In this document: positions 4,101-10,100 of the stretch, one piece after another
Position numbering within the stretch: the first letter of the stretch is position 1
Layout of the letters: every line of letters starts with the position of its first letter
Made by a program: the position numbers
Source of the DNA: a virus
Taxonomy: Duplodnaviria > Heunggongvirae > Uroviricota > Caudoviricetes
Virus record (IMG/VR): IMGVR_UViG_2651869695_000008
DNA: 45,692 bases
Strand: one strand, 5' to 3'

Positions 4101-7100
4101 CTCACGGAAAAAGAGACGCAGAAACAGCGGATCAAACTTAAATTTCTGCTCATTTGCCGCCAGCAGCTGGGCGGTTGTGTACATCGACATAAAAAAATCC
4201 CGTAAAAAAAGCCGCAAAGGCGGCCTTTAGTGATGAAGGGTCAGGTTAAACGATGCTGATTGCCGTTCCGGCAAACGCGGTCCGTTTTTTCGTCTCGTCG
4301 CTGGCAGCATCCGGCCAGAGCACATCCTCATAACGGAACGTGCCGGACTTGTAGAACGTCAGCGTGGTGCTGGTCTGGTCAGCAGCAACCGCCAGAATGC
4401 CAACAGCAGCACCGTCAGTGGTGCCATCCCACGCAACCAGCTTACGGGTGGAGGTATCCGGCATCAGCGGGGTCATTGCAGGCGTTTTCGCACTCAATCC
4501 GCCGGGCGCGGTTGCGGTATGAGCCGGGTCACTGTTGCCCAGCGGCTGGTAATGGGTAAAGGTTTCTTTGCTCGTCATAAACATCCCTTACACTGGTGTG
4601 TTCAGCAAATCGTTAACGGCATCGGATGCCGGGTTACCTGCAGCCAGCGGTGCCGGTGCCCCCTGCATCAGACGATCCAGCGCAGTGTCACTGCGCGCCT
4701 GTGCACTCTGTGGTGCTGCGGCCAGAATGCGGCGGGCCGTTTCCACGGTCATTCCGGGGGTTTCTGCCAGCACGCGTGCCTGTTCTTCACGTCCGTGGGC
4801 CTCCTCACAGTTGAGGATCCCCATAATGCGGCTGTTTTCTGCCGCAACCGCTGCGGTGATCTGCGCGTTCACGTCCGGCTGCGCCGCGCTGGCGTTTTCG
4901 CCCTCCGTCGCTGGAACCACGTCAGTAACGTCAGCCTGCGAAGCAGTGGCAGAAACAGTTGTTGATTGAGTCTCTTTGGTCATTCGCCCTCCTGAGAGAC
5001 GGGATTTACGTGCATCCAGTGCATCACGCATGACGGTGATCGCATCGGTGCTGTTAACAAGTTCATCAGCCAGTCCGGCATCAATGGCCTCCTGACCGCT
5101 GTATACTGCAGCCTCGGTATCCAGCACGGCCTGCACGGACAGGCCGGTATATGCCGACACCTTCTGCGCAAACATCCGGCGGGTTGCATCCATCCGGGAC
5201 TGCAGTGTTTCCCGGACATCATCCGGAAGATGGCTGTAGGGGTTGCCATCCACCTTATGGCTGCCGCTGTAAATCAGCGTGATTTCCACACCCTGTTTCT
5301 CCAGCGCAGCGCCGTAATTACTGTGAGCCATCATGACGCCGATGGAGCCTGTCCGGGCGGTCTGCGTGACCAGACGCCGGGAGGCGGCACTGGCAAGCAA
5401 CTGACCTGCACTGCAGTTCATGTCGTTGGCCAGCGCCCATACCGGTTTTATGTCACGCACACGGGCGATGATGTCAGCGCAGTCAAATGCCCCCGCCACC
5501 ATCCCGCCGGGCGTGTCCATATCGAGCAGAATGCCGTCCACCATCGGATCGCTGGCAGCCTGTTGCAGACGGGCGATAATGCCGTTGTAACCGGTCATCC
5601 CCGAATACGGCTGCAGCGCCCGCGTCCGGCTGACCAGCGTGCCGGAAACCGGCAGCACGGCGATGCCGTTCATGACCTGATAACTGCGGGCCTGTCGTGG
5701 TCCGTCATCATCACCGGATAACGCCAGCGTCGCGGGTGCCTCTCCGGCAGTCAGGCTGTCACCGGACACCGCATCTGTCAGGCGGCTGATCCCAAGCTGG
5801 CCTGCAAGCGCACAAAAGAAAACCCGCGCATAGGCGGGTTCAAGCATCAGCGGCTCATTAAAGGCCATGCTGGCAATATGCGGGAGATTACGCAGCTCTG
5901 CTGTCACTCTTCTCCTCCTCTGTTGATTGTCGCAGCCCGGATTCAAATGCCGCAGCCGCCCAGGCGGGCGGTTTAAGACCAGCCGCGCGGCGCTCCATCG
6001 TTTCACGAACCTGCTGGGCAAAAATTTCCTGATAGTCGTCACCGCGTTTCGCGCACTCTTTCTCGTAGGTGCTCAGTCCGGCTTCTATCAGCATCACCGC
6101 TTCCTGTACTTCTTTCAGACCATCGATGGCCATACGACCGGAGCCTATCCAGTCACAGTTCCCCCAGGCGCTGCGGGCTTCCTGAAAGCTGAAACGCGCT
6201 TTTGAAGGTAACGTCACCACGCGGCGAACGATGGCCTCTTCCAGCCAGCACAGAAACATCTGGCTCGCCTGACGGGATGCGACGAATTTTCGCCGCCCCA
6301 TAAAGTACGCCCACGACTCGTTCGCACTGGCCCGTGCCGTGGAGTAGCTCATCTGGGCGTAATTCCGGGAAAGCTGCTCATACGAGACACCCAGCCCGGC
6401 AGCGATATACCGCAACAGTGACTGCTCAAACACGGAGTAGCCGTTATCCGTGTTCTGAGCCGTCTGCAGGTTCAGTGAGTCCCCCGGCATCAGGTGCGGC
6501 ACTTTTGCGCCTCCCAGCCGGACCGGTGCTGCGGCGTAATACGCGGCAATTTCACCAATCCAGCCGGTCAGCCTGTCCCGCTGCTCCTGACTGTTAGCGC
6601 CCAGAATAAAATCCATCGCTGACTGCGTATCCAGCTCACTCTCGATGGTGGCGGCATACATCGCCTTTATGAAAAGACAGGAAAAAATAAAATTTAAAAA
6701 CAGTACATTACGAATGCTCAGACCTATCGTTTAAAGGAGTCGCAATACACACTGCAATACACGATTATTTATAAGATGAGCGGCATCCGTCATAAAGCTG
6801 GTGGATGCTTTTTCTATGCATATATGCACAGTTTTAGTGGGCGTTAATGTCGATATAGGGATCCCCATATCGAGATTGGATACCTGGCTTTTTTCCGGTT
6901 AACCTTTAATCAGGCTGGTGGGCTTTACCTGTTTTGTATGAGTGGTCATCATGACCATGTCATAACAAAAACCCCATATTCGTGGTTTTTCTGTGTCGGG
7001 CTATTCTGTCGTTGCTGTGCTGATTTGGCTGGTGGGCTGAATCATCATTACGGCGATGCAGCTATGTAGACGTTCCGGCCTCCTCAAATTGAGGATTGTG

Positions 7101-10100
7101 GAAGAATCAATGGGTTAGTCTTACTTTCCCGACATCCCCCAATGGGGGTTTTCGAAACAATCAATAGCTTAGGCTTACTTCCCCGATTTCCTGCATTGCA
7201 GGTTTTCGAAATAATCAATGGGTTAGGCCATCGTGCAATTTTGCACTTTGCCAGCCAGCGCAATGTCGCGTTATCAGTCCTCAGATGTGAGGGATGTAGC
7301 CAGCTTTTCCCCCAGTGGGGGATATCCAGCACCGACGGCTTAACTGTGCGTGCCAGCACAAGGTAGCCTTGAACTACTTACTGCATCCCATCTTACAGGC
7401 CGTGCCTTCCTGCTTAACTTTTTGCAATGCAACAAGTCAGCCAGCGCAATTTTGCGTTATCGGGAATATCAGCAAGTTACCGCCGCAATCGTTCCGGCTT
7501 CTTCCACTGGTAAGTGTTTTTCGCGCTCTCCCTCCGTTGTTGAGAACGGCGACGATATGCCAGCAACTCAAGGACTCTTGTTCGTATGTTGCGCATATCC
7601 ACGCCGTTAAGCTCAATACCGTCACGGCGCATCACCTCAGCCACTACACGCACATAATTATCTGCGGTCACGCTGTCCGGCTGCGTGGCCTGTTCGTCAT
7701 GCTGCTTGCTGATTCCACAAGCACGGCGGATTAATCGCAGTATTTCGGATTCAGTCATAGCGTACTACGTTACTTATCTTTATTCGGCTGCAACTTATCC
7801 GGTACGTTTCCGGCAGTTTCCATCAGATAATCGGACAGCATCAGCGGTATGTTTTCGTCAAGTTTTGCGCATGCGTTACAGGCTCTGATAACTTCTTTTT
7901 TCAGTCCATCCAGCATAGACGGCTTCATGTCGGGAAACTTCCTTGTCATGGCAAGCGGCAGGCTGTCCATGATTGAAGAAATCTGACTCGCCAATTTTGA
8001 AAGCACGTATATACAAAACGCGGTATCAATAACGTCGCCGCGTTCGCGCTCGTTTTTAAGCTCCTGCGCCTCTGCCTGTGCTGTCAGCAATCTGATCCTG
8101 ACTCGTAGGAGTTCATCATCATCAATCTCGCCTTTGTCGTCTGTAATCTGGTTAATTGCATTGCTAACCCGATTGTCTATTACGCTGGCAACATCATAAA
8201 ACGCCTCGCGGCCTTTACGTTCAACGGGAGTCACTCCCCACTTGTCGAACGCTGTCGCACTTACACGGCAGCTTTGCGCCATGTTTTTTTTGTTCATCAG
8301 GTGCGATTTCATCAATATCCCCACTTAAGTAATGTTTCAGGTTGGTGTATTGGCTTTATCTTTTCCTTTTTATTCATAGAGATAGAGCGAACAACAAAAC
8401 CACCACCAGCACCCGAAAAAGGCTCATAAATAGCGAAAACCCGCGAGGTCGCCGCCCCGTAGCCTACCGGATCGCCGGAAAGGACCCGCCAGCCAGAACG
8501 GGCCCTAATTTCATCAACCAATCAACTTATAGCGACCATCCCGTGCATTGCGACGTACACGCTCAATCTTGAGGCATAGCGCCGCATCTGGCTTTTTTGG
8601 GACAGGTACGCGGCAATATTCAGAAGATCGAGGAATATTGTTTATCCAGTCGATCACTTCACTTAAATACCAGGCCTTACGCCCTTCCGTAACCTGTACG
8701 CGTTCGGGGAACTCTCCGCGAGCCTCAAGGTTTAGCAATGTGCGACGGCTAAGGGTAGTAAGTTCCATCACCTGATTCATATCAACAAGGCGTTCACTTA
8801 AACGCATTTTGTCAGCAATAGCCTTTAATTCCTCTACTGCTGGATCCGGATACATCATTTCGGCAATTGGCTTAAGGTCATTGTAATGATTCTGCATTGT
8901 ATCCCCCTTTACACACGAGCCAGCGGCTGAACAGAAATACCTGAGCCAACAAACGCGGCAACCTTTGCCGACAGTTCTTTTACAGACTCAGGCCAGTTCA
9001 GAGCATCAACATTTAAAACACCTGTCTTATAAACCTGTGCCTGTGTTTTTTTCGCTGTGTCGATTTGTACAGCGGAAACATAAACCGCTTTACCTACGCT
9101 CGAACCATCCCATACCACCAGTGCACCTGTTGCATCTTCCTGCATCAGTGGCGTAAATGCAGGAATTACCCCTTTATTAGCTGAAAATATCCCCAGCGTA
9201 GTCACCAGTGCTTCAGTGCCAGCCATGAGTTCAGTGTAATGAGTAGCCATTGCTCCCCCTTAGCCAATGCGAACGGTAACAAAACGATTGATGCGGGCCG
9301 GTATTGGCTGTGGTGCTGAATGTGTCTGCACATATTCAATAGCCGGATCACCAGGCACAATATAGTTTTTCGGTGCAAGTTCGGCTTTAGTCAGCCCCAT
9401 TCGGATTAGCTCCGGATCCTGAATACCGCCATAGGCGACAATCCCCTGAAGAGCCGTATTGCCAAGCACCATCAAATCAGGATCAAGGAAATGTTTTTCT
9501 GTTCCGTCCTCGTCGGTATAACGCCCGCTGTAAACAACAATCGCAACATCGCCCATATACCCTTTAAAACTCACCGAATCACCAAGGTCTTTAAGGGCCG
9601 TTTCCAGTTCGGAATTAGAACCACGACGGGTATCCAAAGCCTCTTTTATCGCTCTGAATGAACGGTATTTCTTCCATACATTACCACCCATAATGATGAT
9701 ATTAGTGACGCCCTCACTAAATTCTGCGTAGCTCTCAATATCATCATTTGGATCAAAAGTTTCTTTATCCTTACCTGACCACTCAGTACCGCCAGACTGA
9801 GTGATGATATTTTGTGGTTTTATATTCCAGTCCAGCTCATAACGTTCAATACCATCGCCCTCAATGATATTTTTCCCCGTTGTGATTGCCTGAACAGCAA
9901 GCCATTCAATACGTGCACGAATAGCTTTAGCCTGATTTACAATCGCCTGTTTAACTTTAATATTACGCGCCCCAAAAGCATTGTATTGCTCAGGTGACAC
10001 ACCAGCAGGGCGCACAGCTAACTTATTTGGATCAATGCTGCTTTTCGGCTTCATATAACCTGGACGAATTGTTTTTGATTCGTATCCCTCATCTCGTGAA

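Follow-up and report, generated by a model that had tools for sequence, protein, structure and literature searches.

The window analysed here, a stretch of 45,692 nucleotides (IMG/VR record IMGVR_UViG_2651869695_000008), carries a satellite embedded in a prophage, and the genes of the satellite as well as the late genes of the prophage all lie on the minus strand. Because the left junction of the satellite is found at 6660-6667, a tandem repeat array at 7075-7236 sits about 410-570 bp inside its left end. In identical copies, the interval 7060-7340 is free of RefSeq CDS annotation, and the array has no Pfam or PHROG match, in agreement with the earlier note on this DNA, which had found no convincing protein-coding signal there. 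The neighbouring minus-strand gene (7477-7758) is a conserved phrog_1561 member, unassigned in function, that often accompanies such arrays. Three Chi sites (GCTGGTGG; plus strand, starting at 6797, 6914 and 7028, spanning 6797-7035) separate the array from the satellite left end; a pattern search finds 10 Chi sites in the window, all within the satellite, versus 1.36 expected. Helper-embedded PICIs have defined attP arm motifs 81 and 132 bp from the crossover (PMC10111431), and arm motifs of this type are found here at 6741-6763 and 17406-17429, which places the array (+410 to +570) outside attP. The satellite cosN (8446-8457), with its own cosB adjoining terS, is 1.2 kb from the array, and origin-like iterons (11298-11522) adjoin the primase gene.

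The array had been described as about 2.7 tandem units of 56 bp at 7104-7255, each with a hairpin followed by a T-tract. Tandem Repeats Finder (7105-7228, period 54, 2.3 copies, 80% matches) and a repeat search confirm tandem repeats with dyads at the satellite left end, but with a period of 54 bp and three full units in register (7075-7128, 7129-7182 and 7183-7236), so that the array begins about 30 nt earlier. On the plus strand each unit consists of a perfect 13-bp dyad, 10 nt and a perfect IHF consensus (WATCAANNNNTTR), the gap between dyad and core being constant in all three; the dyad is a candidate operator of the general form CCnnnN-N-NnnnGG. Unit 1 contains the dyad CCTCAAATTGAGG (7082-7094), the 10-nt spacer ATTGTGGAAG and the consensus AATCAATGGGTTA (7105-7117); unit 2 contains CCCCCAATGGGGG (7136-7148), TTTTCGAAAC and AATCAATAGCTTA (7159-7171); unit 3 contains CCTGCATTGCAGG (7190-7202), TTTTCGAAAT and again AATCAATGGGTTA (7213-7225). 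The dyads listed previously (CCCCCAATGGGGG, CCTGCATTGCAGG and GTGCAATTTTGCAC) are all present, the first one, in unit 1, having been missed, and the T-tract TTTTCGAAA is found after the dyads of units 2 and 3 only, ATTGTGGAAG standing in its place in unit 1. By its fit to the consensus, this “T-tract” is the A/T-rich flank of a predicted IHF site, made up of TTTTCGAAA and the AATCAATGGGTTA that follows. Four perfect 6+1+6 palindromes lie within 250 bp, whereas 200 dinucleotide shuffles of the window yield 1.5 on average and 3 at most; the palindromes are thus clustered beyond chance. The unit motif occurs three times versus 0.03 expected, and three of the five perfect IHF-consensus matches in the window belong to the array, on one strand and 54 bp apart. 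The IHF cores have been homogenised between units, the dyads remaining distinct.

Several further elements flank the array. The dyad GTGCAATTTTGCAC (7233-7246; 6-bp arms, 2-bp centre) also stands behind the final unit of roi type in the majority of related PICI arrays, as seen in CGTGCAAWTTTGCACT contexts from IMG/VR contigs and E. coli loci; no phage counterpart was found for it. A degenerate CAGCCAGCGCAAT..GCGTTATC module recovered by the repeat search on the plus strand (7252-7275), with a decayed dyad and no IHF core, recurs at 7438-7461 (24 nt, 92% identity), as had been noticed near 7250 and 7440. The short inverted repeat CCTCAGATGTGAGG (7279-7292; 5-bp arms, 4-bp centre) is kept in several related arrays (L007, L222, L224 and L208). 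What had been seen as a fourth hairpin is indeed present: a palindrome scan locates the orphan dyad CCCCCAGTGGGGG at 7309-7321, of the B type also found in unit 2. No IHF core adjoins it on either flank, and the flanking sequence identifies it as an inverted copy relative to unit 2 (arms 7131-7148 and 7309-7326, 89% complementary). A fourth composite module, of a different type, occupies 7445-7479 on the plus strand and overlaps the stop codon of the phrog_1561 gene; it combines the dyad CGCAA-TT-TTGCG (7445-7456), a 10-nt spacer and the near-consensus IHF core TATCAGCAAGTTA (7467-7479). This type of module is also present in many PICI loci, and no phage counterpart was identified for it either.

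Judged by sequence identity, the array units are copies of a regulatory site inside the helper-phage gene roi, a gene of lambdoid and Stx phages, each from a different roi allele, the best match of every unit being its cognate allele. Unit 1 corresponds to allele A (phages JLK-2012, phi330 and Lahn2), with 42-43 of 45 positions identical and 94-96% identity to roi genes over 50 bp; unit 2 to allele B (VT2-Sakai, Stx2 II and PA phages), with 41 of 45 positions and, across 53 bp, 90.6% identity to roi genes that include the VT2-Sakai one; and unit 3 to allele C (..GVIQLPALQVFEKINNLGL..), with 38 of 45. The allele B dyad is imperfect in the phage (CCCCCAATGGTGG) and perfect in the satellite. The exact 21-mer CCTGCATTGCAGGTTTTCGAA of unit 3 is present in 55 IMG/VR loci and lies, in most of those, within a roi-like gene. 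The roi product joins a winged-helix domain of the pRha type to an “antirepressor” domain, KilAC (Phage_pRha and ANT/KilAC domain hits), and the site is located in the codons just past the helix-turn-helix. Throughout the HK022 genome, the dyad occurs once, in roi; of the three perfect IHF-consensus matches, one is in roi and two lie upstream of int at the expected position of attP (which the record does not annotate). The initial 50 kb of VT2-Sakai contain one dyad and one consensus, both in roi. HK022 roi displays the same order, with cCTGCATTGCAGc followed after 11 nt by AATCAATGATTTA. A perfect or one-mismatch 13-bp dyad is found at the same codons in nine roi-like alleles (A, A2, B, C, G, HK022, Cronobacter ENT47670, phage D6 and a Pseudomonas phage), the arms taking five or more different sequences, while the perfect dyad is absent from WGPS9, SJM3 and APSE-2. 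Across distant phages, the recognition-helix residue after VK/VR tracks dyad positions 3-5, a correlation confounded by physical linkage since helix and dyad lie within about 60 bp. As a negative control, GGTTTTCGAAANAATCAAT has 49 matches in genome contigs covering 185,579 species by one genome each; all but one are chance matches in unrelated taxa, none of those 48 with the dyad, and the remaining match is a roi allele C gene. The Roi protein of HK022 is reported to recognise a target inside roi itself, adjacent to a site for IHF, which stabilises its binding. Proteins of the pRha family block phage growth in IHF-deficient hosts (PMC4936722).

Arrays of this kind, of which no description was found in the searchable literature, recur in other E. 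coli PICIs at the distal end, opposite int, in clpS, thiM, phoQ and tRNA-Thr islands, and 13 of the 14 distinct multi-unit arrays mix different dyads. Their orientation relative to the island genes is inverted between PICI classes, one class being opposite; in EcCIMP1-type PICIs, the array is downstream of and co-oriented with perC. Unit numbers differ and spacings of 55, 68 and 87 bp occur, not always multiples of three; the gap between dyad and core is 10 in most units and 9 or 11 in a few, and a minority of units carry one-mismatch dyads. Array-adjacent genes also differ between islands (capsid, phrog_1561 or perC). In the PICIs L064, L065 and L009-L011, the stretch of roi coding sequence that is matched is longer by about 23 nt (aaaaatggtgttatccggctt), and this shows capture from the roi gene itself.

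Whether the dyads act as DNA or as RNA can be approached through their covariation. In the dyad alignment, 93.6% of cells are paired and four of the six pairs change on both sides, including the pair that flanks the single central base; this score is reached by none of 500 shuffles, and slid registers are only 31-44% paired. As a 1-nt loop cannot form, covariation of the innermost pair favours duplex dyad symmetry over a hairpin, and the pattern is better explained by duplex operators of differing specificity than by selection on RNA structure; the self-complementary, covarying stems reported earlier are thus real, but their reading as RNA structure is disfavoured. The region folds better than shuffles on the plus strand (z -3.7) and equally so on the minus strand (z -4.0). 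Stacked intrinsic terminators or small structured RNAs, two of the three functions that the earlier note had offered, would account for the GC-rich hairpin followed by UUUUCGAAA on the plus strand in units 2 and 3, for the folding and the covarying stems, and an array of the EcCIMP1 type could end the perC transcript. Both nevertheless appear quite improbable: folding is strand-symmetric; the single hairpins are weak, with 5 bp and -6.2 to -8.5 kcal/mol (-10.5 for the orphan) and z-scores of only -0.6 to -2.3; at most four U follow them, and none after unit 1; a terminator scan of the array calls no hairpin and an Rfam search returns no match; the T-tracts face away from every gene here; and array orientation relative to island transcription is not conserved. 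Moreover, the sixth pair, impossible in a hairpin, is still complementary and covarying, and the conserved partner of the dyad is an IHF DNA consensus at a fixed 10-bp distance. Taken together, these observations favour the third function offered, a protein-binding array. A small protein with 18-residue repeats, on the plus strand (open frame 7070-7366) or the minus strand (7084-7359), would explain why the period equals 18 codons without indels and why both frames are open over more than 90 codons; it deserves almost no credence, as the first ATG (7142) falls within unit 2 without a Shine-Dalgarno sequence, PGAP places no CDS here in any listed genome, protein families are not matched and the frame is broken in related arrays by their spacings and differing unit numbers. 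Descent from in-frame roi codons, together with palindromy, accounts for the open frames.

The clear roi homology is equally what functionless debris would show, if roi fragments had been captured by PICI-phage recombination, tandemly duplicated and left to drift. Late zones of PICIs are known to capture phage DNA (PMC10111431), and the additional coding sequence kept by some PICIs, the one-mismatch dyads elsewhere and a roi reading frame still open across the array, as expected of recent in-frame copies, would all be in line with this. It is unlikely, however, since every unit is trimmed to the same 54 bp or so, with dyad and IHF site only, and the strongly conserved roi flank (YVFEGEQGKRDS...) is never kept. 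Drift does not readily explain a B-type dyad more perfect in the satellite than in the phage gene, different alleles side by side in nearly all multi-unit arrays, homogenised cores next to distinct dyads, the same architecture at the same position in unrelated PICI backbones, or a dyad-core gap that mostly holds at 10 even where unit spacing departs from multiples of three. It is also rather unlikely that the array serves as an architectural element based on IHF and recognised by some non-Roi factor of the satellite or the host, for instance in excision, packaging or replication, with the roi likeness reflecting a shared factor. The three phased perfect IHF sites, the proximity to an att end and to the cos site, the neighbouring modules that share the dyad, 10-bp gap and IHF-like layout without a phage counterpart, and the frequent company of phrog_1561 speak for such a factor; but the array is outside attP, the cos site has its own cosB, the iterons are elsewhere by the primase gene and the adjacent genes vary between islands. 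A single factor cannot explain why one array holds three different dyads whose matches are to three separate roi alleles.

The reading favoured here, with somewhat better than even confidence, is that the array would act at the DNA level, as a landing pad or decoy of several specificities for IHF and the Roi of the helper, rather than as an RNA element, and that the satellite probably uses it to bind or soak up a helper-phage regulator. That Roi reads the dyad, that IHF binds beside it and that titration or sensing results is what we infer from these comparisons; the dyad is an obvious candidate, and only a candidate, for the Roi target. The half-site centres of the dyad are separated by about 8 bp, a short distance for an HTH dimer of the classical kind. 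During development of a helper or competitor phage that carries roi, a Roi dimer would bind its cognate dyad and IHF would bend the adjoining DNA; the 54-bp spacing, approximately five helical turns, would set three Roi/IHF complexes in phase. In this way the array, once the satellite replicates, may capture Roi proteins with any one of several specificities, or titrate them, and this could sense or disturb the Roi/IHF-dependent way in which the helper controls lytic growth; what the satellite would gain is speculative. The window holds no cognate Roi partner, because roi is absent from the embedding prophage, where an HNH-AP2 gene occupies that position, and no pRha protein was found encoded by the satellite.

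The RIP/RIB (BIME-1) elements, reportedly REP palindromes flanking an IHF site at the 3′ ends of E. coli transcription units, resemble the array in combining repeated palindromes with an IHF consensus downstream of genes in a terminator-like layout; in contrast, the satellite palindromes are 13 bp versus about 35 bp, occur only in PICIs and roi genes instead of being scattered over the chromosome, and the REP consensus is not present in the array. Tandem Rho-independent terminators share the GC-rich stem and following T residues of units 2 and 3 but not the weak 5-bp stems, the short or missing T run, the strand opposite to local genes or the unconserved orientation. The E. coli datA locus titrates DnaA and needs IHF, and multicopy operator DNA titrates phage repressor; the logic proposed here is similar, with clustered high-affinity regulator sites, IHF as architectural partner and sequestration, but the array sites are on a mobile satellite, were apparently copied from a helper-phage gene, number one per allele rather than many for one protein, and titration is only proposed. 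The satellite fits the helper-embedded PICI class (Tommasini, Mageeney & Williams 2023, PMC10111431), as it has inserted into a late gene of the prophage (portal), its attP is flanked on either side by the doubled TGTATTGC arm motif, and it carries a late zone, a Bro-N gene and a primase of the D5 type; neither the array nor any IHF site is described in that study, which notes a lack of resemblance between the attP motif and IHF sites. A further close parallel is the intragenic Roi and IHF site of HK022, to which the units are homologous as a segment of roi alleles, sharing a 13-bp dyad that starts at a Pro codon and is followed after 10-11 bp by WATCAANNNNTTR; unlike it, the satellite copies are non-coding, lie three in tandem at a PICI end with no roi gene nearby, combine three allele specificities and include a perfected B-type dyad.

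Between the last gene of the satellite and its left junction lies a non-coding stretch that harbors an array of three in-register 54-nt units, delimited by repeat search at 7075-7128, 7129-7182 and 7183-7236 (period 54, 2.3 copies, 7105-7228 by Tandem Repeats Finder). Every unit contains one perfect 13-nt palindrome made of 6-nt arms and one central base; palindrome scanning places these dyads at 7082 (CCTCAAATTGAGG), 7136 (CCCCCAATGGGGG) and 7190 (CCTGCATTGCAGG), together with an orphan fourth dyad at 7309 (CCCCCAGTGGGGG). All four have the form CCnnnN-N-NnnnGG common to alleles of the phage gene roi, and four 6+1+6 palindromes in 250 bp are more than any of 200 dinucleotide shuffles contained (mean 1.5, maximum 3). 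The earlier note's description of tandem repeats holds overall, with the period corrected from 56 to 54, the start from 7104 to 7075 and the copy number from 2.7 to three units; its list of palindromes was incomplete, the first dyad (7082) having been overlooked. IHF, a host DNA-bending protein, has the consensus WATCAANNNNTTR, and an A/T-rich stretch is typically found 5' of its core. In all three units, exactly 10 nt separate the dyad from an IHF core; the cores at 7105, 7159 and 7213 (AATCAATGGGTTA, AATCAATAGCTTA and again AATCAATGGGTTA) all match WATCAANNNNTTR perfectly on the strand of the dyads, and what had been described as a T-tract, TTTTCGAAA, is the A/T-rich stretch preceding the core. 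Only five perfect matches to the consensus exist on the two strands of the window, and three of them are those of the array, on one strand and 54 bp apart, a spacing of about five helical turns.

The surrounding window is a lambdoid prophage with its late genes on the - strand (major capsid E, 3165-4217; protease C, 4588-6042; terminase, 18587-21032) and its cosN at 21210-21221; the 10.9-kb satellite interrupts the portal gene, leaving parts at 5888-6661 and 17506-18387, and an identity block, ATCGCCTT, is common to the two junctions (6660-6667 and 17558-17565). The satellite's own genes all lie on the - strand: integrase (16116-17357), AlpA-like gene (15857-16114), Bro-N "antirepressor" (15222-15800), D5-type primase (11536-13290), SSB (10518-10940), E-type major capsid protein (9260-10387), D-type decoration protein (8909-9250), a second AlpA (8514-8897), a Nu1-like small terminase (7770-8324) and a phrog_1561 gene (7477-7758). 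A doubled TGTATTGC..TGTATTGC is present at 6741-6763 and 17406-17429, some 85 and 140 bp in from the respective satellite ends. The doubled TGTATTGC is the attP arm motif of helper-embedded PICIs (HE-PICIs), where the arm motifs lie 81 and 132 bp from the crossover (PMC10111431), and its presence at both ends thus assigns the satellite to this class. The array, at +410 to +570 from the crossover (6660-6667), was rejected as an attP arm, the arm motif being the copy at 6741-6763. It was likewise rejected as a cos site or cosB: the satellite has its cosN, GGGCGGCGACCT, 1.2 kb away (8446-8457), upstream of terS. The satellite cosQ/cosN (8325-8530) is almost identical to that of the prophage (21033-21290), GGGCGGCGACCT included; the cosB side diverges from the prophage's, with about 22 bp missing, which accords with the satellite's own Nu1-like small terminase and its different N-terminal half. 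All ten Chi sites (GCTGGTGG) of the window fall inside the satellite and none in the prophage, when 1.36 would be expected for 45.7 kb; three are clustered on the + strand (6797-6804, 6914-6921 and 7028-7035), in the orientation that stops leftward RecBCD entering at the satellite cos end (8446), and the others are at 8403, 10878, 10904, 12236, 12497, 13834 and 15135. Replication origin iterons are an unlikely identity for the array; short iterons are found beside the primase gene (11298-11522), where CCCATCTA (x2.4, 11298-11316) and GGTAGATGG (x2, 11505-11522), mutually complementary tandem repeats lying between the primase gene and the next gene, probably constitute the satellite's replication origin.

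On the prophage side, the nin region contains a perfect hexamer repeat, AAATAG x11.8 (27959-28029), adjoined by an inserted ORF of 590 aa (28346-30118, +; 34% GC) with no Pfam match. An HNH_3-AP2 homing-endonuclease-like gene (27199-27846, -) lies directly upstream of ninG, in the slot where roi+ phages have roi. Two Rfam families score above their gathering thresholds: the Hfq-binding sRNA isrC in the tail-gene region (965-1087, -; 135 bits) and the lambda cIII thermoregulator (38662-38720, +; 88.5 bits).

When compared by BLAST with E. coli genomes and phages, the array matches the inside of genes annotated as roi, DNA-binding protein Roi or KilAC antirepressor, whose product combines a Phage_pRha winged-helix domain with a KilAC domain. 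The pRha family is known for a phage-growth block in IHF-deficient hosts (PMC4936722). The roi segment homologous to the units directly follows the helix-turn-helix, and each unit finds its best match in its cognate allele: unit 1 in allele A of JLK-2012, phi330 and Lahn2 (42-43/45 identities; protein segment ..GVIRHPQIEDCGRINGLGL..), unit 2 in allele B of VT2-Sakai, Stx2 II and the PA phages (41/45; ..GVIRNPPMVVFEKINNLGLL..), and unit 3 in allele C of many IMG/VR prophage contigs and Stx2a_WGPS6 (38/45; ..GVIQLPALQVFEKINNLGL..). Sequence search yields no solved structure homologous to Roi. According to Clerget and Boccard (1996), roi is reportedly the reason why lytic growth of HK022 requires IHF; a Roi-binding site closely linked to an IHF site is said to lie inside roi itself, and binding of Roi to be stabilized by IHF. 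HK022 roi contains cCTGCATTGCAGc followed, after 11 nt, by AATCAATGATTTA; the dyad is unique genome-wide, and perfect IHF consensus matches number just three in that genome, one in roi and two upstream of int, where attP, unannotated in the record, would lie. In the first 50 kb of VT2-Sakai, the dyad and the IHF consensus each occur once, both in roi. Given the homology to roi and this uniqueness of the site in HK022 and VT2-Sakai, the satellite units are, judging from sequence, copied from the composite site inside roi. Among phages, dyad and core are separated by 10 nt in alleles A, A2, B, C and D6, and by 11 nt in HK022 and allele G.

Nine roi-like alleles hold, at the same codons, a 13-bp dyad that is perfect or has one mismatch, and its sequence varies: CCTCAA-N-TTGAGG in alleles A and A2, CCCCCA-A-TGGtGG in B, CCTGCA-T-TGCAGG in C and HK022 (c at the end in HK022), CCACAG-A-CTGTGG in G, CCTCCA-A-TGGAGG in phage D6, CCTGCA-A-TGCAGG in a Pseudomonas phage and CCTCAA-A-TTGAGG in Cronobacter ENT47670. 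Among 13 dyads from satellite and phage, 93.6% of cells pair and both sides have changed in four of the six pairs; the covariation score is reached by none of 500 shuffles, and slid registers are only 31-44% paired. The innermost pair is always complementary, switching from A-T to G-C in allele G; as a single central base separates its partners, it cannot form in a hairpin, and its covariation is consistent with duplex DNA being read through its dyad symmetry. Dyad positions 3-5 vary from allele to allele in step with the residue that follows VK/VR in the presumed recognition helix, with I or V accompanying TGC (C, HK022, Pseudomonas phage), Q accompanying CCC (B) and R accompanying TCA, TCC or ACA (A, D6, G). 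This correlation is suggestive, albeit confounded by physical linkage; at nine phage roi loci, the operator-like dyad occupies the codons that directly follow those of the protein's own recognition helix.

The same modules are encountered in other E. coli PICIs, whether next to clpS in O157:H7, next to thiM, next to phoQ, in the tRNA-Thr island (EcCIMP1 type, after perC) or on many IMG/VR contigs, and in these different elements they lie within a few hundred bp of the junction at the end distal to int. In satellites, 10 nt separate dyad from core, and a gap of 9 or 11 is rare. Different dyads are mixed in 13 of 14 distinct multi-unit arrays, drawn from types A, B, C and G and from three for which no phage counterpart was found (CGCAA-TT-TTGCG, TTCGCC-GCT-GGCGAA and CAGCC-GTT-GGCTG); the GTGCAATTTTGCAC and CGCAATTTTGCG modules, for which phage counterparts were sought, gave only matches in other PICI arrays and chance matches. 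IHF cores are homogenized among units while dyads remain distinct, and the B-type dyad, imperfect in the phage gene, is perfect in satellites. Relative to the island genes, the array runs in the same direction in the tRNA-Thr PICI and in the opposite one in the window; its position is thus conserved and its orientation is not, as fits an orientation-independent DNA site rather than a terminator. As a control, GGTTTTCGAAANAATCAAT occurs by chance 48 times in unrelated genomes, never with an adjacent palindrome, and this genome contig scan disclosed no cross-species satellites, returning almost only chance matches in unrelated taxa. Between junction and array, two more palindromes (AATGTCGATATAGGGA/TCCCCATATCGAGATT, 6846-6877; GGTCATCATGACC, 6944-6956) are also present at the O157 clpS satellite end and at another PICI end (L012), and this recurrence makes the whole satellite end a conserved non-coding module. 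A terminator-like hairpin at 6782-6809 (+; 11 pairs, then TTTTT) points into the satellite from the left end and has a Chi site within its loop and stem, with a related Chi-bearing segment at the clpS end. The phrog_1561 gene (7477-7758, -) often adjoins the array, including at three further loci; it encodes a protein with a basic C-terminus and ends in a stop codon that overlaps, in a fourth module (7445-7479), the IHF-like core.

Several other readings of the array have to be weighed. Open frames traverse it (a roi-derived + frame, 7070-7366, and a - frame, 7084-7359) as they would if it encoded a repeat protein; however, neither has a start codon with a ribosome-binding site or a match in Pfam or PHROG, PGAP annotates no CDS over the array, and the spacings in related arrays disrupt such a frame, so the repeat-protein reading was rejected. 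Folded as RNA, the two strands do equally well (z -3.7 for + and -4.0 for -), and the single hairpins are weak (5-bp stems, -6.2 to -8.5 kcal/mol), their U tracts reach 4 at most and are absent after unit 1 when an intrinsic terminator calls for about 5 or more, and a terminator consensus scan reports none of them. The T-tracts are moreover on the + strand, opposite to the neighboring genes 7477-7758 and 7770-8324 and to the prophage late genes, rather than downstream of and co-oriented with them, and the array is reversed in the tRNA-Thr PICI. No Rfam family reaches its gathering score over the array; up to E=10, only STnc310 appears in 6600-7800, outside the array and at 15.9 bits against a 40-bit threshold. 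The stacked terminators and small RNAs that the earlier note had proposed are therefore disfavored; its observation that the stems vary while staying self-complementary stands as covariation, better explained by duplex dyads than by RNA structure, since the pair impossible in a hairpin also covaries, and the duplex dyads and IHF consensus would favor its remaining option, a protein-binding array. CRISPR-like or RNA anti-CRISPR repeats and type III toxin-antitoxin RNA repeats were rejected because the hairpins vary while the "spacers" are conserved and neither a cas gene nor a toxin gene is adjacent, and REP/BIME/RIP elements because the REP consensus GCCKGATGCGRCG... is absent from both strands of 6661-7500.

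A reading of the units as neutral debris of captured roi fragments has the longer roi remnants of some PICIs in its favor; against it stand the exact trimming of the units, their perfected dyads and the mixing of alleles within arrays. They might also form an IHF architectural element serving another factor. Against Roi counts that the embedding prophage has no roi and the satellite no pRha protein, neither element holding a pRha or KilAC gene and the array lying inside no roi coding sequence; that the half-site centers are only about 8 bp apart; and that some roi alleles have no dyad. The best-supported reading is nevertheless that the array would consist of multi-specific Roi-operator/IHF modules acting on DNA. 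Its anatomy, homology and covariation, the uniqueness of the site in two phage genomes and the pattern of recurrence and orientation are directly established, and we infer that the dyad is read by Roi, that IHF occupies its site and that titration or sensing is the outcome. Roi proteins from several phages, helpers or competitors, would find in the array a landing pad or sponge, and IHF would act as the architectural partner.

Tentatively, and with more doubt than confidence, it can be proposed that E. coli satellites gather a distal multi-allelic "library" of operator/IHF modules copied from roi, with which one satellite could capture or sense Roi of several specificities, whichever lambdoid or Stx phage develops in the cell. 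As a corollary, roi would hold its own operator within the codons adjoining the recognition helix; dyad and helix may form a linked specificity cassette, specificity and target being inherited together. The array would offer naturally occurring Roi/IHF sites that are both non-coding and perfected, and the pairs of protein allele and operator hint at a recognition code. The role of Roi/pRha-family proteins, and why their phages need IHF lytically, would be reopened as an old question; since many Stx phages are roi+ and E. coli O157 strains harbor such satellites next to clpS, an influence of the array on lytic development, if there is one, could matter for the induction of Shiga-toxin phages. 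Searches of the searchable literature turned up no mention of satellite arrays of roi-type sites and nothing relevant on Roi with PICIs or satellites or on IHF sites in PICIs; what appears new here is the satellite arrays of composite sites, the composite site inside roi having reportedly been known since 1996. How Gram-negative PICIs perceive and manipulate their helpers is still poorly understood, and the known satellite strategies, such as Stl antirepression, Rpp and capsid remodelling, are protein-based. An array of helper-derived operators would be a different, cis-acting strategy, in which satellite and helper interface via DNA decoy sites and not protein-protein contacts.
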